Shown: piece by piece, positions 35,182 to 45,880 of the stretch
How the letters are laid out: each line of letters starts with the position of its first letter
How positions within the stretch are numbered: the first letter of the stretch is position 1
Assembly: GCA_963781585.1 (NCBI GenBank)
Contig: CAWAGQ010000003.1
Location: forward strand, 128,001 to 192,000
Reading direction: 5' to 3'
DNA length: 64,000 nucleotides
From: an uncultured Gemmatimonadaceae bacterium
GTDB taxonomy: Bacteria; Gemmatimonadota; Gemmatimonadetes; Gemmatimonadales; Gemmatimonadaceae
Position numbers and translations under genes: made by a program
Notes under the pieces: generated by a model
Database searches by the model: none
Seen by the model: the letters and a program-made list of their open reading frames with translations, nothing else
What the model was told of the DNA's origin: nothing

Positions 35182-35844
35182 CTAGCGCACGCGCCCCTGC
35201 CCCGGTCCGTTCCGGACCGCGGCCGGGGCGCGTGACACATAGGGGCTCGAGCTGACGTAAAACCGCAGTGGCCAATCGGCTGCCAGCCTGATGCCGATGC
35301 GCGCAGACACTTCCACCTGCGCATCCGGGACCGGTACGCCTTCGAGAATCCGCAGCGAACCGCGCTGGAGCGGAGCACCGTTCAGGCGACCGTCGATCGC
35401 CAGGGCCGCACACAGCCTGGCCGGGCCGCTCGTGAGCTCACGATCCGGCACCGCACCGCGGCGCGCGCGCATGAGATCGAATCCGGCAAGCGGCTCGAGC
35501 GCCCTGATGAGGACCGCGCTCCCATGACCGGCTTCCCGCGTGACCGCGTTGACGCACCAATGCATGCCGTAGATGAAATAGACATAGGCCGTACCGGGAG
35601 GGCCGAACAGGGGCCGGTTCCGCCTGGTCAGCCCGACGGCGGCGTGACAGGCAGGATCGTGCGGGCCCAGATAGGCCTCGGTCTCGACGATGCGCCCGGA
35701 CGCGATACCGTCCGCTGTGCGGGATTCGAGCACGGCGCCCAGCAGGTCACGCGCCACACCCTCCGTCGCGCGGTCATAGAACGCGGGGAGAATGGGGACG
35801 GCCCTGGCGGCGCGCCGCGCACCCAGCGCGGCGCGCGCCATCAT
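35182..35844 (-). CDS. mpg: DNA-3-methyladenine glycosylase (MPG/AAG family)
   Basis: GRIVETEAYLG, YVYFIYGMHWC, AVLIRALEP, GPARLC, RIGI. Confidence 0.93.
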   Translation of the reverse strand: MMARAALGARRAARAVPILPAFYDRATEGVARDLLGAVLESRTADGIASGRIVETEAYLGPHDPACHAAVGLTRRNRPLFGPPGTAYVYFIYGMHWCVNAVTREAGHGSAVLIRALEPLAGFDLMRARRGAVPDRELTSGPARLCAALAIDGRLNGAPLQRGSLRILEGVPVPDAQVEVSARIGIRLAADWPLRFYVSSSPYVSRAPAAVRNGPGQGRVR

Positions 35845-37592
35845 GCGGCTGCGTCCTTCGGAGTGCTCTTCTTCGACCGGGATCGCCTGGGCTTGGACTT
35901 GGCCTTCTCCCCGGTTGCGCTCTTTGCGGCGTCGGGTCCCTCCGGCGCCGCCGCGGACTCACCCTTGGCTGCGGACGCGACTCGCGCGCGCCCCTTCCCA
36001 CCGCGGCGTGTCCTGGTACGGGGCTTCGCCCCAGCCACCGCTTCCCCTTCCACCGGTGCCGCCTCGGCGACGGCAGGCACGTCGACAACCCCCACCGAAA
36101 GCAGTTCAGGCGGCGGCGCCGACGGGCGCGCACCCGGGCGGCCACGTCCCGGGATTCCGCGGGGACCCATGCCCCGAGGGGCGGGAGCGGCTGCCGTCTG
36201 AGATGGCTGGGCGGATGCGCGAGCAGCCGCGGCCCGATTCAACTGCTCCGCCACCGGAGCTACATCCGCGGGAAGGGCAACTTCATAGTCATCCCCACGG
36301 CGACGGAGATCGATGATCTCGGCGTCGTGCGCGTCGCGGAGCACGCGAGCAAAGTTCCGTTCGCTCAGGCTCTCGCTGTCGCGGCCGAGCAAATCGAAGG
36401 CCCGCCGCCGGAGCGCCACTGCCGGCACCGAGCCGCCATCGGCGATCAGCGCCGCCGTGGTGCGGCGGAGCAGATCGAAGGCCTCCTCTCTCGTCAGGCG
36501 TTCGCCGCCGAGGCCGATCCCGTCGCTGGCTCCGGCGGACACCGCTGTTGCCGCTGGCGCCGGGGTCGAGGCTTCCGCCACTTCGGGAGCGGCCGCCGCG
36601 GCAATCGGCGGAAGGGCCGCACGCTCCTCGCGCTCACGCCCCGGCCCGCGGTCCCGTCCGCCCCGGCGTCCACGCCGGGTTCCCCGCTCCTCACGATCAC
36701 GCGGCTCGGATCCCCGTCCTCCGGGAGGCCGGTGCGATGCGGATGGTTGCGCTCCCCCACCAACGCGATGCGGATGTTCGGACGGCGCAACTTCGAGCTG
36801 GCCGTTCTCCATCTTCGTCACCTTGATGAGTCCCTGCGCCGCCGCCTCCTGACAGAACCGCGAGAACTTCGACATGCCGAGATTCTTCTCGTCGAACCCG
36901 GGGTCGATGTCCTGCATGACCTGCTTGAGGCGATCCGAGCGCATCACGTCGCCGTTCTTCACCATGCGATTGATGGCTTCGGTGACGAGCTCCCAGGGAT
37001 CCCACTTCACGACTTCATCCTCGCCAGCCTTCACCAGCCCGGCCAGGGCGTTGTAGCTGTAATACTCGTCGCAGTTCATGACCAGCAGGTCGCTCGACGA
37101 CTCCCGGATCCCGACACCGATGACGTACTTGCCGTATTCCTTGAGCTTCGTCACCAGACTGGCGAAGTCGGAATCGCCGGAGAGCAGGATGTAGGTTCCG
37201 ATTTCCGAACGCGTGAAGACCAGCTCCATGGCGTCGACCGACAGCCGGATGTCGGTCGCGTTCTTCTTCGACGTCCCATAGGCAGGCGCCATGATCATGT
37301 CGATCGACGCCTCTGCGAGCGGAACGATGTACTGGGGATAGCGGCGCCAGTCAGCGTAGGCGCGCTGCACGGCGACTTTGCCCTTGATGATTTCCGAGCC
37401 GAGGAGGTTGCGGAGTTCACCCGCCAGGTCGGAGCGGATCCCCATCGTCACGTTGTCGAAGTCGATGAGGAGGGCGGCGTTTGGTGCGTGTTGAACCGGG
37501 AGTTGGGAGAGTTGAGGTAGGGCTTGCGGACCCCGATGTATGGGGGTGACCGGCGCGCGCGATGGCGTGTGCCGTGGTAGGCGTTGGTTCAT
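35841..37592 (-). CDS. NYN-domain protein (LabA/DUF88) with LOTUS/OST-HTH domains and a basic low-complexity tail
   Basis: ALLIDFDNV, RAYADW, KNATDIRL, SGDSDF, CDEYYSY; FDEKNLGMSKFSRF. The start is uncertain. Confidence 0.85.
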   Translation of the reverse strand: MNQRLPRHTPSRAPVTPIHRGPQALPQLSQLPVQHAPNAALLIDFDNVTMGIRSDLAGELRNLLGSEIIKGKVAVQRAYADWRRYPQYIVPLAEASIDMIMAPAYGTSKKNATDIRLSVDAMELVFTRSEIGTYILLSGDSDFASLVTKLKEYGKYVIGVGIRESSSDLLVMNCDEYYSYNALAGLVKAGEDEVVKWDPWELVTEAINRMVKNGDVMRSDRLKQVMQDIDPGFDEKNLGMSKFSRFCQEAAAQGLIKVTKMENGQLEVAPSEHPHRVGGGAQPSASHRPPGGRGSEPRDREERGTRRGRRGGRDRGPGREREERAALPPIAAAAAPEVAEASTPAPAATAVSAGASDGIGLGGERLTREEAFDLLRRTTAALIADGGSVPAVALRRRAFDLLGRDSESLSERNFARVLRDAHDAEIIDLRRRGDDYEVALPADVAPVAEQLNRAAAARASAQPSQTAAAPAPRGMGPRGIPGRGRPGARPSAPPPELLSVGVVDVPAVAEAAPVEGEAVAGAKPRTRTRRGGKGRARVASAAKGESAAAPEGPDAAKSATGEKAKSKPRRSRSKKSTPKDAAA

Positions 37593-37952: not shown

Positions 37953-38375
37953 TCAGACCCCCATCGCCTTCAGGATAACGCGCTTGGGGCGCTGCCCGTC
38001 CCATTCCCCGTAGAAGACGCGCTGCCACGGACCGAAGTCCAGACGACCGCCGGTCACCGGCACGATCACCTCATGTCCGATGGTCAGGCTGCGCAAATGC
38101 GCGGCCGCATTGTCCTCGCCGGTGCCCGAGTTGTGGCGATACCGCTCCGGATCCCATGGCGCGATTCGACTCTCCAGCCAGTCGAGTATGTCCTTCCAGA
38201 GGCCAGGTTCGTGGTCGTTCACGAACACGCTGGCGGAGATGTGCATCGCGGAGACGAGGACAAATCCCTCGGCGATCCCGGCCTCGGATCGACACTCCTC
38301 GACCGAGTCGGTGATGTCGATGATCTCCTGGCGTTTCCTGGTATTGAACGTCAGGTACGCGGTGTGAGTCTTCAT
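37953..38375 (-). CDS. yjbQ: YjbQ/UPF0047 family protein
   Basis: MHISASVFVND, YRHN...EDNAAAHL, GPWQRVFYGEWDGQR. Confidence 0.9.
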   Translation of the reverse strand: MKTHTAYLTFNTRKRQEIIDITDSVEECRSEAGIAEGFVLVSAMHISASVFVNDHEPGLWKDILDWLESRIAPWDPERYRHNSGTGEDNAAAHLRSLTIGHEVIVPVTGGRLDFGPWQRVFYGEWDGQRPKRVILKAMGV

Positions 38376-38533: not shown

Positions 38534-39793
38534 ATGTTGCGGCAACTCGCGTTTCGCAAGCGTCTCCTCGTCGTTCTTTCACTGTTTGCGCTGGTGCCTG
38601 CCATCGCGATGACGGTCGCGTGGGCAGTTGCCGTTCGCACCGTCCTGCTCAAGGTCTCGGAGAACGCGGCGTGGGAGCAGGTTGCGTCTTCCGGCGCGCG
38701 CGCGCTCGATTCGCTGCGCGGAGCACCGCTCTCGTCCGGTCAGCGCGCGGCCCTCAGAGCCCATGAGCAGAACCTGGCGCAGTCGGTCACCCAGGCGCGC
38801 CGATTCGACTTCGTGGCGGTGCGATTCGCCAGGGTGATGATAGTGGGAGCGATTGTCGGACTCGTGCTGCTGGGGGTGCTCGCGTCGCGGGTGGCCGGGC
38901 ATCTCAGCCGGCAGATGAGTCGGCCCCTGAACGAGCTGCTGGGATGGGCCGAACTGATCGCCCGGGGCGCCTCTCTTCCGGCCGAGACTCCACTGCGAGG
39001 CGCGCCGGAGTTCAAGGTGCTGCGCGAGCGCATGCGGACCATGGCAGTGGAGCTCGCCGATGGGCGGGTTCGCGCACTCGAGGCCGAGCGGCTGGGCGCC
39101 TTTCGCGAGAGCGCGCGCCGATTCGCGCACGAATTGAAGAACCCGCTCACGCCGATCCAGTTTGCGCTTGCCCGGCTCGAGCGCGAAGTCCCTCCGGAGC
39201 TTGCCGACACGGTGGACGTCCTTCGGACCGAGACCGGGCGTCTCAACGAGATGTCGAAGAATTTCTCGCAATTCGGCCGGCTGCCCGGAGGGCCGGTTTC
39301 AGAAGTGGATATCGGCGACCTGGTTCGGTACGGCGTTCGGGCAGTGGTGCCGCCCGATCTTTCCGTCTTCATCGAAGTGCCGCCGAATCCGGTCGTCGTG
39401 CGCGGGCAGCACGATGCGCTCCAGCGGGCGCTCACGAACATCCTGCTCAACGCGGTTGACGCCTGCTCGGCGTCGAGCAGCAATGGTGACGGTTCCGGGC
39501 ATCGGGGAGCGATCCACGTCACGGTGGAACTCAGTCCGTTGGGCGGCGGGGAGGGGGTCGCGATCCGGGTTCGGGACACGGGGTGCGGGATTCCGCCGGA
39601 GCGAATCGAAAGCATCTGGGATCCGTACGTGACAAGCAAGCCCGGGGGCACTGGTCTCGGGCTGGCTATCGCGCGACAGACGATCCTGGCACATCATGGG
39701 AGCGTGGCGGCCGAAAGCGCGCCCGGCAGGGGAACGGAGATTCGCCTGGTGCTCCCGGTGGCGGCCGATTCACACCTCAACGTCGAGGCATGA
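38534..39793 (+). CDS. Membrane sensor histidine kinase (NtrY-like: 2 TM, HAMP, HisKA, HATPase)
   Basis: Two TM helices, HAMP, H-box AHELKNPLTPI, N-box, DTGCGI, GTGLGL. Confidence 0.93.
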   Translation: MLRQLAFRKRLLVVLSLFALVPAIAMTVAWAVAVRTVLLKVSENAAWEQVASSGARALDSLRGAPLSSGQRAALRAHEQNLAQSVTQARRFDFVAVRFARVMIVGAIVGLVLLGVLASRVAGHLSRQMSRPLNELLGWAELIARGASLPAETPLRGAPEFKVLRERMRTMAVELADGRVRALEAERLGAFRESARRFAHELKNPLTPIQFALARLEREVPPELADTVDVLRTETGRLNEMSKNFSQFGRLPGGPVSEVDIGDLVRYGVRAVVPPDLSVFIEVPPNPVVVRGQHDALQRALTNILLNAVDACSASSSNGDGSGHRGAIHVTVELSPLGGGEGVAIRVRDTGCGIPPERIESIWDPYVTSKPGGTGLGLAIARQTILAHHGSVAAESAPGRGTEIRLVLPVAADSHLNVEA

Positions 39794-39797
39794 CCTG

Positions 39798-40091
39798 GTG
39801 ATCTCACCGTTCCTCGTTCCGATCGTGTTCTTCATCTCGCTGCCGGTGACCATCATCGGGGTCATGCTTGCCAGAACACATGCGCGCCGGGTGGAGCAGC
39901 GAGGCACGGGAAGGGAGCTGGGTCCAGAACTCGCGGAGCGTCTGGACCGTATGGAACAGGCCGTGGATGCGATCGCGGTGGAGGTCGAGCGCATCTCCGA
40001 GGCACAACGATTCACGACCCGGCTACTGGCGGGTCGGAGCGAATCACAGGGTCAACGCATCGAGGGGCCGTCATCCGGAGGAAACCGGTGA
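39798..40091 (+). CDS. Small single-TM coiled-coil protein, paralog 1 of 4
   Basis: TM helix then RLDRMEQAVDAIAVEVERISEAQRFTTRLL. Confidence 0.8.
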   Translation: MISPFLVPIVFFISLPVTIIGVMLARTHARRVEQRGTGRELGPELAERLDRMEQAVDAIAVEVERISEAQRFTTRLLAGRSESQGQRIEGPSSGGNR

Positions 40092-40372
40092 ACGAAGACA
40101 TTGTCATCCCAATCGCCGGAATGCTCATGATCATCATTCTGGCGCTGGGCGTCCCGCTGGTCGTGTCTCACGTCAGGCGGACGTCAGCCCGCGACTCAGT
40201 GCGGGGGGAGCCGCGGGACGAGGGGCGACTGGAGCGTATCGAGCAGGCGATCGATGCGATGTCGATCGAGATGGAACGTATTTCGGAGGGCCAGCGGTTC
40301 ATCACCAAGGTGCTCGCCGAGCGTTCGCCCGAGCCGGTGGCGATACCCGCCGCCACCCGCCGGAACGCGTGA
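40088..40372 (+). CDS. Small single-TM coiled-coil protein, paralog 2 of 4
   Basis: GGAGG RBS, GTGA overlap; TM helix then RLERIEQAIDAMSIEMERISEGQRFITKVL. Confidence 0.85.
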   Translation: MNEDIVIPIAGMLMIIILALGVPLVVSHVRRTSARDSVRGEPRDEGRLERIEQAIDAMSIEMERISEGQRFITKVLAERSPEPVAIPAATRRNA

Positions 40373-40385
40373 ACTTCGAGGTCGC

Positions 40386-40679
40386 ATGTTGATTCAGGGC
40401 GAAGACATCGCGATGGCGGCGATCATCCTCGGCACCGCCAGCGCGACCATCATTTCCCTCGCGCGGTTCTGGTTCAAGCGCCTGGAAATACGTGACCGGG
40501 CGCGAACCGGCGCGGGCGACGTGGACGACCGACTGCTCCGCATCGAGCAGGCGGTGGACGCCATCGCGATCGAAGTCGAGCGCGTGTCGGAAGCACAGCG
40601 ATTTACCACGAAGATGCTGGCTGAAAGGCTGCCCGCGGCCGCCTTGCCAAGCGAGACATCAAGGAGAAGTCCGTCATGA
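40386..40679 (+). CDS. Small single-TM coiled-coil protein, paralog 3 of 4
   Basis: GAGG RBS; TM helix then RLLRIEQAVDAIAIEVERVSEAQRFTTKML. Confidence 0.85.
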   Translation: MLIQGEDIAMAAIILGTASATIISLARFWFKRLEIRDRARTGAGDVDDRLLRIEQAVDAIAIEVERVSEAQRFTTKMLAERLPAAALPSETSRRSPS

Positions 40680-41299
40680 CGCAGGCCACAACCGCGCAGG
40701 CCACACCGCAGGCACCCACGCCGCCGGCGACGCCGGCGCAAACGCTCGATCAACAGATCGAGAAGACGGTCAATGACGCGGTCAACCAGGCGCTGCAGGG
40801 CGCGCAAGCCGGCGCAAACGGGGCCGAGGCGGGTCGGCTGGCAGCTCAGCGCGTGAAGGAGGCGATGGCGCGGGTGCGGGCCGAGATGGACGCGCGGGCC
40901 AACGGCGGGATTGCCGGTGTGGCGCAGGGGCCGGTGTTTCCGGCCGATGTGATCCCGCCGCAGGTCGTGGACATCACCACCGCCTTCTTCATCACCGTGG
41001 CGGTAATCGTCATCGGACTTCCGTTGGCACGGGCGATTGCACGAAGGATGGATCGCCGGGGCGCGCGGGAGGCGGTGGCACCACCACCCGAACTGGCGTC
41101 GCGGCTGGACCGGATCGAGCAGGGGATCGAGGCGATGGCGATCGAAGTGGAGCGAATCTCCGAAGGCCAGCGTTTCGCGACGCGGCTGATGTCGGAGATG
41201 CGGGGCCTGCCGGCGCCGAACCCGATGGCTGGACGAATGGCGCGCCCGGCGAACGAGGCGGAGCCGATTCCGGAACCGGCGGCCGAGCGCCGCGCCTAA
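40676..41299 (+). CDS. Single-TM coiled-coil protein with an N-terminal Ala/Gln-rich extension, paralog 4 of 4
   Basis: AGGAG RBS, ATGA overlap; TM helix then RLDRIEQGIEAMAIEVERISEGQRFATRLM. Confidence 0.85.
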   Translation: MTQATTAQATPQAPTPPATPAQTLDQQIEKTVNDAVNQALQGAQAGANGAEAGRLAAQRVKEAMARVRAEMDARANGGIAGVAQGPVFPADVIPPQVVDITTAFFITVAVIVIGLPLARAIARRMDRRGAREAVAPPPELASRLDRIEQGIEAMAIEVERISEGQRFATRLMSEMRGLPAPNPMAGRMARPANEAEPIPEPAAERRA

Positions 41300-41311: not shown

Positions 41312-42709
41312 GTGGCCAGCGTTCTGATCATCGACGACGAGCCGAATATCCGGCGGATGGTCGGCGCCCTGCTGACCGCGGAAGGATACGAGGTGCGCGA
41401 CGCGCCCGACGGCGCGCGTGGTGTGGCGGTCGCGCTCGAAACGGACCCCGATGCCGCGCTGGTCGACCTGATGATGCCGGGCACCGTGGACGGCATGGGG
41501 GTGCTCTCGGCGCTGCGGGAAAGGCTCCCCGATCTGCCGATCATCATGATGAGCGGGCGTGCCGGGTTGGCGGACGCGGTGCGGGCCACCAAGCTGGGTG
41601 CGCACAATTTTCTGGAGAAGCCGTTGACGCCGGAGGGAGTGCTGCTGGCGCTTTCCTCGGCGATCGAGTTGCGACGGGCGCGCCGTGAAGCGCAGGCGCT
41701 GCGGGCCGACCTCGGCCTCTCGATCGAAATGGTCGGTGGCAGCACCGGGATGCGCCGCCTGCGCGAACTCATCGGCCGGATTGCCCCGACCGACGCGCGG
41801 GTGCTGATCTCGGGCGAGTCGGGGACGGGGAAGGAGCTGGTGGCGGTCGCGATCCACAACGGGAGTGCGCGGCGCGACCGTCCGTTCGTGCGCGTGAACT
41901 GCGCCGCCATTCCACGCGACCTGGTGGAGAGCGAGATGTTCGGTCACGAGCGGGGGAGTTTCACCGGCGCGACTGAGCGGAGGATCGGACGGTTCGAGCT
42001 GGCACATCGCGGCACGCTCCTGCTCGACGAGGTCGGCGACCTGGGACCCGAGGCGCAGGCGAAACTCCTGCGGGCGATCGAAGCACGGGAGATCGAACGC
42101 GTGGGCGGCACCAAGCCCATTCCGATCGACGTGCGTGTCATCGCCGCGACCAACAAGGACCTCCAGCGGACGGTTCGCGAGGGTGCATTTCGCGAGGACC
42201 TGCTGTTCCGTCTGAACGTGATCCCGGTGGAGGTGCTCCCGCTGCGCGAGCGCCCCGACGACATTCCCGATCTCGTCAGGCACTTCTCCGCGTTGCACCG
42301 CGTGCGGACCGGACAGGCGTTTCCCGCCTGGCAGAGCGACGCGCTCTCCGCCCTCCAGCGATACCGATGGCCGGGCAACGTGCGGGAACTGGCGAACATC
42401 GTGGAGCGGTTGGCGATCCTCCACGCCGGCCAGCCGGTGACGGCCCATCAGGTTGCGCAGGTGCTGCCGATCGAGGAATCGCCGGGCACGATGGCGCCGG
42501 CCACGCTGCCCGACCCCACCGGCCTCGAGGCGCCCCTCACCGACCTGCTCGACGAGTACGAGCGCCTGCTGATCACGCGGGCGCTCACCTCGGCGGGAGG
42601 CAACGTGGCCGAAGCGGCACGACGCCTGCGGACCGACCGGCCGAACCTCTACCGTCGAATGAAGCGCCTGGGGATCGCGCTCGAGGCGGGGATGACACAC
42701 ACGGCGTGA
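41312..42709 (+). CDS. sigma54-dependent response regulator (NtrX-like)
   Basis: REC domain; GESGTGKE; GSFTGA; WPGNVREL; HTH NVAEAARRLRTDRPNLYRRM. Confidence 0.93.
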   Translation: MASVLIIDDEPNIRRMVGALLTAEGYEVRDAPDGARGVAVALETDPDAALVDLMMPGTVDGMGVLSALRERLPDLPIIMMSGRAGLADAVRATKLGAHNFLEKPLTPEGVLLALSSAIELRRARREAQALRADLGLSIEMVGGSTGMRRLRELIGRIAPTDARVLISGESGTGKELVAVAIHNGSARRDRPFVRVNCAAIPRDLVESEMFGHERGSFTGATERRIGRFELAHRGTLLLDEVGDLGPEAQAKLLRAIEAREIERVGGTKPIPIDVRVIAATNKDLQRTVREGAFREDLLFRLNVIPVEVLPLRERPDDIPDLVRHFSALHRVRTGQAFPAWQSDALSALQRYRWPGNVRELANIVERLAILHAGQPVTAHQVAQVLPIEESPGTMAPATLPDPTGLEAPLTDLLDEYERLLITRALTSAGGNVAEAARRLRTDRPNLYRRMKRLGIALEAGMTHTA

Positions 42710-42848: not shown

Positions 42849-44603
42849 ATGCGTCGCCTAACCCTGCTCCTGCCCGCGCTGGTCGTTCCGCTCGCCGCCC
42901 CCGGGCAGGTGCCCTCGGTCCAGCGCGAGACCGTTCAGGTGGTCGAGTCCCGGAGTATCCCGCGCGACATCGCCGACGACGTGTCACGCCTGTTCAATGC
43001 CTCCTCCACAACGCGCCTCACGGGGACGCAGCAGATCGACAGCGGCCAGGTGGTTTCGCAGGACATCGCCATTCTCGACGGGTCGCTCACAATCGCCGGC
43101 CACGTCGCCGGGCGGCTGGTGGCGATCAACTCCGCGGTGGTCCTGCTGCCGGCGGCACGGATCGATCGTGACGTGACGATTCTCGGCGGTACGTTCGACT
43201 CCCGCGATCCGGACAACGTTACCGGCGACGTGCGGGTCTACGGCGATCGCGTCAACGTGACCCACGAGGACGATCGCATCGTTGTGCACGGCGACCCGGA
43301 CAGCGATCAGTGGTTCCGCCGGCACAGGCGATGGGAGACGCGCGCGTGGAGCGATCTGCGGCTGGTCTCCGCCCGAACGTACAGCCGGGTGGAAGGGCTG
43401 CCCCTCCTGCTCGGGCCGCTGTTCGGCCGCGAGTTCTCCTGGGGCCGGGTGTCAGTGGACGCACTGGGAATCATCCGGAGCGCCGACCGCTTCGACTGGA
43501 AGAGCGAGAATCTCGGGCACAGCCTGAAGACCGAGATCAGCGTCGGGAAGCGCGGCGGGATTCGCGTTGGCGGCCAGCTGTTCGACCTGGTGGATGCGGT
43601 CGAGCCCTGGCAGCTGTCGGACGCGGAGAACGGCCTTGCGTCGTTCTTTCTGCACCGTGACTATCGCGACTACTTCGATCGACATGGTGGCGCCGTCTAC
43701 AGCACGCTGTTCCTGGGGAACACCACCGATCTCACGCTGCGCTACAGCGCCGAGCGCTGGGGATCGCGTGACGCCCGCACGCCGTTCACGCTCTTTCGCC
43801 AGACGCAGGACTGGCGTCCGAATCCGCAGCTCGACGACGGCACGGTGCATCTGGTGAACCTGACGCTGCGGTACGACACGCGGAACGACGAACTCGAGCC
43901 GCGGTCGGGCTGGTACGTCAGCGCCGACTTCGAACACGGAAGTGGCCAGAGCCTGATTCCGGGACCGGCCTCCTGGGCGGCGCGCTTCGGTGCGCTGGAC
44001 CCGATCTACAATCGCGGGCTGCTGGACGTGCGACGCTACAATCGCGTCGCACCGGACGGGCAGCTCAACCTGCGATTGGTTCTGGGCGGATGGTTGGGCG
44101 GTGACGACCTCCCGCTGGAGCGTCGGTTCTCGCTGGGCGGTCCCGGCACGTTGCCCGGGTACGATTTCCGGCGGATCGAAGGGGGGACCGACTACTGGCA
44201 GTGTTCCGCACCGCCGGCCGCTCCATCCGGCCCTCCTCCGGCGGCGTATCCGGCGGGTCTTCCGGCGCAGTGCCAGCGGATCGCGCTCGCGCAAGCCGAG
44301 TACCGCGGCGTGATTCACGTGGATCCGTTAGGCATACTTGGCGAGGAGCGGGTGCGGCGGCGGAGCGGCTGGGGACGGACCGCCGAGTGGGTCGTGTTCG
44401 CGGACATGGGACGGGGTTGGCTGGTAGGCGAGCGGTTCGGAGCCCTGCGGTACGGAAGCAATGCCATCCCGCCGCTCAACACGTTTCGCGGTGATCTCGG
44501 GGTCGGGATCCGGCTCGATGACGTCGGGGTGTACGCCGCCAAGGCGCTGTCCAACTCCCACACACCGGTGAACTTCTTCGTGCGCCTTCGGCCGCGCTTC
44601 TAG
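42849..44603 (+). CDS. Omp85/BamA-TamA-like outer-membrane protein with an N-terminal bactofilin-like beta-repeat region
   Basis: Signal peptide; G.L.I.G.V.G repeats; LRYDTRND, FSLGGPGTLPGY, VVFADMGRGW, C-terminal RLRPRF. Confidence 0.7.
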   Translation: MRRLTLLLPALVVPLAAPGQVPSVQRETVQVVESRSIPRDIADDVSRLFNASSTTRLTGTQQIDSGQVVSQDIAILDGSLTIAGHVAGRLVAINSAVVLLPAARIDRDVTILGGTFDSRDPDNVTGDVRVYGDRVNVTHEDDRIVVHGDPDSDQWFRRHRRWETRAWSDLRLVSARTYSRVEGLPLLLGPLFGREFSWGRVSVDALGIIRSADRFDWKSENLGHSLKTEISVGKRGGIRVGGQLFDLVDAVEPWQLSDAENGLASFFLHRDYRDYFDRHGGAVYSTLFLGNTTDLTLRYSAERWGSRDARTPFTLFRQTQDWRPNPQLDDGTVHLVNLTLRYDTRNDELEPRSGWYVSADFEHGSGQSLIPGPASWAARFGALDPIYNRGLLDVRRYNRVAPDGQLNLRLVLGGWLGGDDLPLERRFSLGGPGTLPGYDFRRIEGGTDYWQCSAPPAAPSGPPPAAYPAGLPAQCQRIALAQAEYRGVIHVDPLGILGEERVRRRSGWGRTAEWVVFADMGRGWLVGERFGALRYGSNAIPPLNTFRGDLGVGIRLDDVGVYAAKALSNSHTPVNFFVRLRPRF

Positions 44604-44626: not shown

Positions 44627-45265
44627 GTGCGACCGCACGTCATTCTCGCCGCCCTCCTGTTCGCGGTGCCGGCGGCCGCGCAGGGCGGCCCGAAGCTCGA
44701 GATCACACTCCCGTCGCGTGACGCCCTGGCCACCGAGGGGCCGCGCGTGCGCGCTGTGAACGTGCTGTCGGAGCCGACGGTCCGGGATCTCCTGAACAGC
44801 GGATTCCCGGCACGCCTGCATTTCCGCGTCGAGCTCTGGTCTTCGGGCGGGTTGTTCAACGCGATGCGCGAAAGCGCCGAATGGGACGTGGTGGTGAGCT
44901 ACGACGCGCTCGGCAAGCGTTATCGCCTGGTGAGGCTGAACGACGGGCATGTCGTGTCGTCGCTGCAGTTCGTGAACTTCAGCGCCGCGCTGACGGAAGC
45001 GGAGCGCCCCTATCGTGTACCCATCGCCGCGCGCCGCCAGCGCGATCGACAGTACTACAATGCCGTGCTCGACGTCGAGACGATGTCGCTGGGAGACCTC
45101 GACGAGTTGCAGCATTGGCTGCACGGTGAACTCCAACCCGCGGTACGCGGGCAGCGGAATCCCGGCACGGCGATCGGACGGGGGCTGCGCGAGTTGTTTG
45201 CGCGACTGCTGGGCGCGGATCGTCGGAGCCTGGAGATCCGGTCGCGGACGTTTCAGGTGCCGTGA
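44627..45265 (+). CDS. DUF4390-like exported protein
   Basis: Signal peptide; LLNSGFPARLHFRVELW...SYDALGKRYRL. DUF4390 genes typically neighbour NtrY/NtrX-like pairs. Confidence 0.6.
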   Translation: MRPHVILAALLFAVPAAAQGGPKLEITLPSRDALATEGPRVRAVNVLSEPTVRDLLNSGFPARLHFRVELWSSGGLFNAMRESAEWDVVVSYDALGKRYRLVRLNDGHVVSSLQFVNFSAALTEAERPYRVPIAARRQRDRQYYNAVLDVETMSLGDLDELQHWLHGELQPAVRGQRNPGTAIGRGLRELFARLLGADRRSLEIRSRTFQVP

Positions 45266-45277
45266 ACGACGCGAACG

Positions 45278-45880
45278 TCAGCCGCCGCGCAGGGCGCGCG
45301 GCCGGCGATGCTCGAGATCCTCGAGCTGATGCAGGACCGTCGCGCCGTAGAAGAGCCGGATGTACTTGGCCTGAATCGGCGTGAGGCGGCGAACGGCCCA
45401 GCTGAGGTGGACGAAATGGGGCTCCACCGGGTGCGCCAGAGGATGCATCCCGATCTCTTCAGGCAACTTGTTTCCCTTGCGCGTGTTGCAGGGGCTGCAC
45501 GCCGTCACCACGTTGGTCCAGTCGTTGGTCCCGCCACGCGACAGCGGCACCAGATGATCGCGGGTGAGTGACTCGCGCGGCTTGAGCTCGGCCAGCGAAC
45601 GCCCGCAGAACTGGCAGCAGTAGTGGTCCCGCGCGAAGAGGAACGTGTTGGTGACCTGGCGGCGGAAACGGCGCGGCACATGTACGAAGTTCGTGAGGCG
45701 GATGACGGCCGGCCGCGGGATCGCGAGATGCTCGGACCGGACGGGGCGTTCCCCATCGGCCTCGACAATCTGCGCCTTCCCATCGATCACCAGGCGCAGG
45801 GCGCGCTTCAGGGGAACCATGGTGAGGGGTTCAAACGACGCATTGAGCGCCAGGCAGCCGACGATCACGCGGACCTCCAC
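45278..45880 (-). CDS. HNH endonuclease (McrA-like)
   Basis: LALNASFEPL, FARDHYCCQFCG, TRDHLVPLSRGG..W.NVVTACSPCNTRKG. Confidence 0.92.
   Translation of the reverse strand: MEVRVIVGCLALNASFEPLTMVPLKRALRLVIDGKAQIVEADGERPVRSEHLAIPRPAVIRLTNFVHVPRRFRRQVTNTFLFARDHYCCQFCGRSLAELKPRESLTRDHLVPLSRGGTNDWTNVVTACSPCNTRKGNKLPEEIGMHPLAHPVEPHFVHLSWAVRRLTPIQAKYIRLFYGATVLHQLEDLEHRRPRALRGG

Follow-up and report, generated by a model that had tools for sequence, protein, structure and literature searches.

The 64,000-nucleotide stretch of Gemmatimonadaceae DNA analysed here, referred to below as the window, carries four consecutive small genes located between a gene for a sensor histidine kinase and a gene for a sigma54-type response regulator. 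The features of this cluster are as follows:

38534..39793, + strand: sensor histidine kinase, first gene of the putative operon, with two membrane helices, a weak HAMP, HisKA and HATPase_c
39798..40091, + strand: family member 1 (ORF1), 97 aa, with membrane helix, basic patch and helical motif
39939..40037, + strand: conserved 33-codon helical motif of member 1
40088..40372, + strand: family member 2 (ORF2), 94 aa, with membrane helix, basic patch and helical motif
40226..40324, + strand: 33-codon helical motif of member 2
40386..40679, + strand: family member 3 (ORF3), 97 aa, grouping with an array member of genome G140
40530..40628, + strand: 33-codon helical motif of member 3
40676..41299, + strand: family member 4 (ORF4), 207 aa, with an N-terminal extension of about 95 residues
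41102..41200, + strand: 33-codon helical motif of member 4
41312..42709, + strand: sigma54-type (NtrC-family) response regulator with receiver, AAA+ and Fis-type HTH
42849..44603, + strand: Omp85-superfamily outer-membrane protein (PF01103, E=5.6e-10; synteny)
44627..45265, + strand: DUF4390 protein (PlrP domain; PF14334, E=9.2e-10), conserved in the cluster

The kinase (419 aa) matched the Pfam models HATPase_c (1.5e-25), HisKA (1.8e-11) and HAMP (0.06); its hydrophobic peaks lie at residues 11 and 98 and its periplasmic loop comprises about 70 residues. The regulator scored 405, 397 and 396 bits with the NtrC, AtoC and NtrX models, respectively, all under their cut-offs. The position of the Omp85 gene downstream of the regulator is conserved. 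The gaps between kinase and ORF1, ORF1 and ORF2, ORF2 and ORF3, ORF3 and ORF4, and ORF4 and regulator are 4, −4, 13, −4 and 12 nt. Of the three junctions within the array, for which the first-pass annotation proposed translational coupling, two overlap (−4 and −4) and the third is gapped (+13).

Each of the four ORFs encodes one hydrophobic 19-mer (4/4; mean Kyte-Doolittle value 2.07–2.64) with 3–6 K/R in the next 15 residues and 0 in the preceding 15, and the common motif was found in 4/4, which confirmed the initial description of four consecutive ORFs sharing a transmembrane helix, a basic patch and a motif. The AlphaFold model of the ORF1 core (pLDDT 92.6, pTM 0.47; alignment of 55 sequences) consists of a membrane and amphipathic helix (5–35), a short loop and a 40-residue helix (42–82). 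On the basis of hydropathy, charge asymmetry and this two-helix model, one membrane helix at the N-terminus is predicted, with a helical domain after it in the cytoplasm, which is the anatomy of PspB. A single-sequence model of ORF4 had two extra N-terminal helices; with its low confidence (mean pLDDT 57) it was left out of the conclusions. No signal-peptide-like stretch was found in the N-terminal extension of ORF4.

The heptad positions of the motif are conserved within the family, and its polar residues E, R, E, Q, R and F are near-invariant (98–100% or 91%). Where the membrane helix ends, a stretch G-x-P-x-x-R...R-R is conserved as well (G 67%, P 71% and R 71–78% in 55 family members). The sequences flanking the motif, which had been regarded as unalignable, are thus not entirely so. 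The motif DNA (33 codons) is 68–72% identical between ORF pairs, with 9–15 synonymous differences per pair compared with 9–12 identical codons. In a quick tree, ORF4 grouped with long members of arrays in four other genera (SH-aLRT 95), and ORF3 with a G140 member (SH-aLRT 96) and not with ORF4. The paralogues are therefore older than these genera, and the earlier view of old paralogues kept by selection is borne out both by this grouping and by the many synonymous differences.

None of the four ORFs matched a Pfam or NCBIfam model above cut-off. A PDB sequence search returned generic coiled coils only (best E 0.016) and a Foldseek search with the ORF1-core model gave no match. Chance likeness among the ORFs was considered and rejected: a profile built from all four matches 8 ORFs of the genome with E<=6e-10, the next one being at E=0.11. 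These 8 family members are the array of 4, single genes on contigs C4 and C13 and a pair on C14.

The distribution of the family was followed in a sample of 151 genomes drawn from Gemmatimonadota, comprising Gemmatimonadaceae (f1) and other families designated f2, f3, f4, f6 and f7. In 27 of the 31 Gemmatimonadaceae genomes there were 3–11 family matches per genome; no match was obtained with either of two profiles in 3/31, one of which (G084) has a pspA match. A broader profile detected members in 36/36 of the f2 genomes searched (f2 sample 71), 5/5 of f6 and 7/7 of f7. The named homologues are hypothetical proteins of Gemmatimonadaceae. Among the best 80 of 589 genome loci, which set no bound on the taxonomic range, 78 were titled as Gemmatimonadota taxa and the other 2 as 'bacterium'. 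With 7,995 candidates scored, 3,725 proteins were found at E<=0.001; the family representatives at 50% clustering numbered 4,466, and a Pfam domain was present in 0 of the best 120 family proteins. No relative was found in the viral contigs searched, and no description of the family in the open-access literature searched. By their sequences, the four genes are assigned to an unnamed Gemmatimonadota family that encodes small membrane proteins, and within it to the branch found in Gemmatimonadaceae.

In sister families (f2/f3 and f6), homologues are encoded beside pspA. The 19 tandem-hit loci in f2/f3 are arrays of 4–10 diverged homologues with the tail E-R-x-D-F-x-E-R-L-L, and a CesT/Tir gene or pspA lies at the end of the array in 19/19. 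Loci were then picked by pspA itself to remove the selection for tandem hits. Family genes were found within 1.5 kb of pspA in 18/18 further f2 genomes and in 3/3 f6 genomes; the pspA-adjacent genes of f6 are single copies, and two more f6 genomes from the earlier hits bring the count to 5/5. A search of both called genes and six-frame translations detected no family gene beside pspA at any of 30 Gemmatimonadaceae loci from 29 genomes, nor was one found in f7 (0/8) or f4 (0/1). The gene order in the genome studied is uvrA - CesT/Tir - pspA (pspA on contig C3, 24097–24882) with no insert, the gene preceding pspA being a CesT_Tir_1 gene (PF22550, E=2.5e-19). Array homologues in an operon with pspA thus occur in f2 and f6 and were seen neither here nor at the other Gemmatimonadaceae pspA loci. 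The genomes are kin and these locus counts are not independent of each other.

When the Gemmatimonadaceae profile was aligned with the pspA-linked profile using hhalign, a probability of 98 was obtained (E=6.6e-14, 73 columns), and this sequence comparison establishes homology between the Gemmatimonadaceae genes and the genes preceding pspA in sister families. In a tree of 102 rows and 88 columns, the Gemmatimonadaceae members formed one group (100/94), and together with the pspA-adjacent single genes of f6 they lay on one side of a branch (98/84); the tree has few columns, its bootstrap was not fully settled, and only 30 f2 and 12 murJ-type rows were included. As the tree is unrooted, it is parsimony across the families, and not a root, that sets the direction of the change, from a place beside pspA to one in the kinase operon.

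Neither the flanking kinase-regulator pair nor the link to pspA had been mentioned in the first-pass annotation. To obtain an unbiased set of kinase-regulator loci, we picked them by the Omp85 gene and not by family hits. Fifteen of 19 intact Gemmatimonadaceae loci carry 1–2 family genes and 4/19 carry none; one more locus is truncated. Of 20 loci fetched outside Gemmatimonadaceae, 19 have both kinase and regulator, and a family gene is present in 0/19; kinase and regulator overlap there by 4 nt in 13/19. Nine further Gemmatimonadaceae loci picked by family hits have 1–4 copies each. In a second set, the best 80 of 589 loci, which may overlap the first set, 62 loci have the order kinase-array-regulator, with 1 copy in 39, 2 in 12, 3 in 7 and 4 in 4. 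The rest of this set are 3 partial loci, 14 dispersed ones and one with a single copy between kinase and regulator that was missed by the gene caller; pspA is present in 0 of the 80. Dispersed members were also considered as neighbours of another kinase, but that kinase is on the opposite strand and the candidate was rejected. Since the locus holds between 0 and 4 copies, 1 being the commonest number (39/62 loci), and four further members lie elsewhere in the same genome, a fixed hetero-oligomer of four stoichiometric subunits, as suggested initially, is not supported. No earlier account of a Gemmatimonadaceae branch inserted between kinase and regulator was found.

An ECF-type promoter motif, GAAAC-N16/17-CGTA, precedes pspA, the sister arrays and many of the Gemmatimonadaceae kinase genes. 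The promoter matrix was trained only on 18 of 30 Gemmatimonadaceae pspA upstream regions, and its threshold (13) was chosen after the data had been seen. It matched 22/30 pspA upstream regions, which include the training set, 14/20 regions upstream of the first f2 array gene, 5/5 upstream of the f6 gene and 2/9 upstream of the f7/f4 CesT/Tir genes. The background amounted to 4/275 control upstream regions and 46/3289 in this genome; the latter matches include all 3 dispersed family loci and the CesT/Tir-pspA operon, and the predicted regulon also includes MacB/TolC/HlyD efflux, TPM and M50 proteins. Dispersed Gemmatimonadaceae members had a match in 6/14 cases in the first set and in 0/12 in the second set, even over 700 nt.

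Upstream of the kinase genes, matches were found in 12/27 Gemmatimonadaceae regions versus 0/20 outside the family (Fisher p=4e-4, a value overstated by the kinship of the genomes). In the second set, 34/55 kinase upstream regions matched, 32 of the 34 at one fixed distance. No ECF promoter was recognized before the kinase gene of the window itself (best score −0.4). An internal ECF-like site near 39600 in the kinase gene (score 14.5) was rejected, as it rests on conserved codons and sites of this type are no commoner than in controls (4/27 Gemmatimonadaceae and 3/19 other kinase ends). A sigma54 motif was found in 0/30 Gemmatimonadaceae pspA, 1/20 array and 0/27 kinase upstream regions and was not enriched upstream of family genes either. 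Judged from the upstream sequences, the PspF- and sigma54-dependent transcription of the enterobacterial Psp system is not present, and an ECF-type motif is found instead.

The position of the array suggests the main rival to the reading that we favour, namely that the proteins have been co-opted as accessory regulators whose cytoplasmic helices bind the HAMP/DHp part of the kinase and tune phosphorylation of the regulator. Such a co-option, which would wire a membrane-stress response to an NtrYX/PlrSR-like system, appears possible but rather unlikely to us. Many genera retain the insert between kinase and regulator, which here is separated from them by gaps of 4 and 12 nt, and the ECF promoter occurs only before kinases with the insert (12/23, versus 0/4 without it in Gemmatimonadaceae and 0/20 outside), although the contrast within Gemmatimonadaceae is not significant (p=0.11). 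There are also precedents: the leucine zipper of E. coli PspB mediates its binding to the kinase ArcB (PMC3068692), and kinases of the NtrYX family work with accessory proteins, among them the DUF4390 protein PlrP (PMC13001219). However, the motif is also kept in copies far from such a kinase (4/8 in this genome) and in the pspA-side genes of f6, the kinase-regulator pair exists without an insert in 19/19 loci outside Gemmatimonadaceae and in 4/19 within, and sigma54 motifs show no enrichment before the kinase gene, before pspA or before family genes.

The resemblance to PspB noticed in the first-pass annotation holds as a lead, and it is strengthened because homologues sit before pspA in the sister families; no PspB model, however, reaches its cut-off (25.6 bits for PF06667, 51.7 bits for TIGR02976). 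ORF1 matched TIGR02976 with 14.9 bits (E=0.024), ORFs 2–4 gave no match, and no PF06667 match over the cut-off was found in the genome. Among 105 pspA-linked homologues, TIGR02976 was the commonest NCBIfam match (27/105, best E 1.7e-4), followed by GspM (15); Pfam PspB matched 3/105, not ranked first (best E 7e-4). The pooled profile had pspB as its top match in the E. coli chromosome (E=0.078), whereas the pspA-linked profile alone did not find it. In the Atlas, PspB was the nearest named cluster twice (0.76 and 0.77), which we take as leads only; clusters from beyond the phylum, in Armatimonadota and Thermodesulfobacteriota, are hinted at there as well. The hhalign comparison gave probabilities of 11.6 and 3.2 with a PspB alignment that is shallow, containing only 72–100% identical enterobacterial-type sequences, and this weakens the profile comparisons. 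Depending on the profile, 4–50 of 2000 segment-shuffled decoys and 18–191 of 2000 heptad-preserving decoys reached the score of the real PspB; for the latter decoys, the counts were 18–23/2000 with pooled profiles and 80 (Gemmatimonadaceae only) and 191/2000 with single-branch profiles. The likeness to PspB is therefore weak at the sequence level and stays below the curated cut-offs. The proteins are, by sequence, not PspB by definition; they resemble it in predicted anatomy and, in sister families, in position.

These scores would also fit a convergent likeness, a membrane helix joined to a coiled coil, with a role of the Gemmatimonadaceae branch unrelated to envelope stress. No curated model was passed, GspM and other coiled-coil families were also weakly matched (15/105), Foldseek found nothing and the window lacks the ECF promoter. 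We nevertheless consider this very improbable, given the clear homology to pspA-linked genes and the common promoter before dispersed copies and kinases, both of which are independent of the PspB label.

The observations comprise the four genes and their homology to those linked to pspA, together with the reciprocal order of genes and the ECF-type promoter motif common to relatives. We give about an even chance to the reading that the proteins are displaced inner-membrane anchors or stress sensors for PspA, resembling PspB and the tail of PspC and moved into a kinase-regulator operon, in which single chains join a membrane anchor to a PspA-docking helix within an ECF-controlled envelope-stress response. 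Envelope stress would activate a sigmaW-like ECF sigma factor, which would induce the CesT/Tir-pspA operon, efflux genes, the family genes and, in many relatives, the kinase-array-regulator operon as well. Each protein would insert by its N-terminal helix, leaving the basic patch and the helix of about 40 residues in the cytoplasm, where the helices would bundle together and present the docking helix to PspA. One chain would thus do the job that enterobacteria divide between PspB and the C-terminal tail of PspC. As inputs, the membrane and N-terminal parts would vary from paralogue to paralogue, and one cytoplasmic output surface would be common to all. In E. coli two-hybrid tests, PspB interacted with itself, with PspC and with ArcB, but no binding to PspA was seen (PMC3068692), so docking to PspA would have to copy the PspC tail and not PspB. 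The most economical history would be that the genes entered the kinase-regulator operon early in Gemmatimonadaceae and then underwent repeated duplication and some losses. Several observations speak against this reading: the kinase operon of the window has no recognizable ECF promoter, nor have the 12 dispersed members of the second set; the linkage to pspA is not universal (0/8 in f7, 0/1 in f4), and 3/31 Gemmatimonadaceae genomes gave no family match; and the likeness to PspB is weak.

The proteins could also act as PspA-independent effectors, merely co-induced with pspA, whose homo- or hetero-oligomeric bundles stabilize the inner membrane or capture mislocalized outer-membrane proteins, an idea close to the scaffold suggested in the first-pass annotation. 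In Yersinia, PspB and PspC suffice by themselves to prevent the permeability that secretins induce (PMC5596341), separation from pspA is tolerated throughout Gemmatimonadaceae, the heptad positions are conserved and an Omp85-like gene lies in the same cluster. We find this unlikely, since the invariant polar residues are more than the core of a plain coiled coil calls for and hint at a partner that is conserved, the close association with pspA in f2 and f6 speaks for a common complex, and the variable copy number argues against a fixed hetero-oligomer.

A bolder version of the anchor reading, which we offer as speculation and hold to be improbable in its full extent, is that PspC has been replaced in Gemmatimonadota by PspB-like single-pass proteins that form a combinatorial set, their inputs being variable and their PspA-docking helix shared, and that in Gemmatimonadaceae this module left the pspA operon for an NtrYX/PlrSR-like operon that came under the same ECF promoter, directly coupling bacterial ESCRT-III membrane repair to a sensor kinase and a sigma54 regulator. 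As anchors for PspA, the family would be a candidate adaptor bringing PspA/ESCRT-III-like proteins to damaged membrane in bacteria without PspBC, in an abundant and little-studied phylum. With the reciprocal gene order and the common promoter, there is a case of operon rewiring that can be tested: a stress module has come to lie within a two-component operon, and in many lineages that operon has the same stress promoter. If the proteins were only co-induced effectors, the value of the findings would lie mainly in the annotation of the family.

Like PspB (PF06667, TIGR02976; pspFABC), the family proteins are small, with a predicted N-terminal membrane helix and a cytoplasmic helix, and in sister families they are encoded beside pspA; E. 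coli PspB 3–61, covering the membrane helix and the first heptads, weakly matches the pooled profile (18 bits). They differ in exceeding PspB by about one to two heptads, the end E-x-x-x-F-x-x-[RK]-L-L having no match in it, in their 3–11 matches per Gemmatimonadaceae genome, in having no pspC or pspF seen adjoining, in the location of the homologues upstream and not downstream of pspA (and not beside it in Gemmatimonadaceae), and in an ECF-type promoter where the PspB system has sigma54. The C-terminal tail of PspC likewise has a membrane helix followed by a leucine-zipper-like helix, and this part of PspC binds PspA (PMC5596341, PMC3068692). The family proteins, in contrast, have no PF04024 domain, and E. 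coli PspC reaches only 5–6 bits on the pooled and pspA-linked profiles. PspC (PF04024) was not found in this genome (93.5% complete); the domain is present in 4/31 Gemmatimonadaceae and 14/71 f2 genomes, and a family gene lies near pspC at 1 of 12 pspC loci examined.

In Bacillus subtilis, pspA is under the control of sigmaW. The sigmaW boxes of that organism, −35 TGAAAC and −10 CGTA (PMC5758882), match the putative promoter motif GAAAC-N16/17-CGTA described here. Gene dyads of CesT/Tir and PspA, as well as duplicates of PspB in some operons, were reported by Ravi et al. 2024 (PMC11237479). With a CesT_Tir_1 gene in front of it, pspA in this phylum conforms to these dyads. The word 'Gemmatimonad' is absent from the main text and one supplement of that study, and the passages cited here do not describe arrays of small membrane coiled-coil genes with the dyad (PMC11237479).

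Compared with the NtrYX and PlrSR systems, the present kinase differs in its shortness (419 aa, with a loop of about 70 residues), the regulator in scoring 395.9 bits on the NtrX model, whose cut-off is 600, and the DUF4390 gene in lying downstream, after the Omp85-like gene; an insert of membrane-protein genes is not described in the part of the PlrP study cited here (PMC13001219). What the cluster has in common with these systems is a kinase, a sigma54-type regulator and a linked DUF4390 gene. The DUF4390 protein PlrP is a periplasmic partner of NtrYX-family systems (PMC13001219), and NtrYX regulates the envelope in R. sphaeroides (PMC7240162).

The ECF motif (GAAAC-N16/17-CGTA) defined a predicted regulon of 46 genes among 3289 upstream regions in the source genome. 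The 20 of these 46 genes that were scanned include genes for MacB/FtsX permeases, TolC and HlyD proteins, TPM-domain proteins, M50 and CAAX proteases and DUF456, together with several small membrane proteins without a name. In 32 of the 34 matches among the kinase upstream regions of the second set of 80 relative loci (L240-L319), the ECF promoter started approximately 35 nt 5' of the start codon of the kinase gene. Since only about 7 nt remain between the −10 box and the start codon, this promoter–start codon distance suggests that the kinase transcript is leaderless. In one relative locus, a long family member carrying a strong ECF motif (L044:5500-6926) is directly followed by a gene for an ECF sigma factor (Sigma70_r2/r4_2), and this sigma factor may be the cognate one.

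The long members of the family possess an N-terminal extension, which comprises about 95 residues in ORF4 (window 40676-41299). Two further examples are:
L031:5609-6322, long family member
L032:5710-6327, long family member
None of the 23 long members contained a signal-peptide-like stretch in this extension. In spite of this, the positive-inside rule predicted their N-terminus to be outside. The N-terminus may be translocated without a signal, or a re-entrant helix may leave both ends inside.

The operon is flanked by NYN-domain and HNH genes in most of the Gemmatimonadaceae loci examined and by a UPF0047 gene in some of them. In the window, these flanking genes occupy 35841-37445, 37953-38375 and 45278-45880.

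The response-regulator frame was found to be open for approximately 900-990 codons in five loci:
L201:6166-9039, long open regulator frame
L203:6540-9263, long open regulator frame
L204:6554-9277, long open regulator frame
L205:6302-9229, long open regulator frame
L298:5291-8251, long open regulator frame
In L201, L203 and L204, the frame continues directly into a signal-peptide-like stretch and Omp85-like sequence. The long frames represent either a real fusion or the loss of a stop codon combined with an internal start.

A separate branch of the family occurs as one copy between bshC and murJ in five other families of Gemmatimonadota (f2, f3, f4, f6 and f7):
L034:5739-6038, branch member (bshC and murJ labels checked on this locus)
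L035, L036, L105 and similar single-gene loci among L056-L083, further branch members
This branch was not found in the source genome.

In addition to its pspA, the source genome encodes a divergent homologue of PspA/IM30 (G000:C14:71403-72149; E=2e-11), whose gene clusters with transporter-like genes, as judged from its neighbours by eye. As for PspC, one of the 12 pspC loci examined (L213, from another sampled genome, G052) has pspC near a family gene; it is a short standalone pspC, 431 nt upstream on the same strand.
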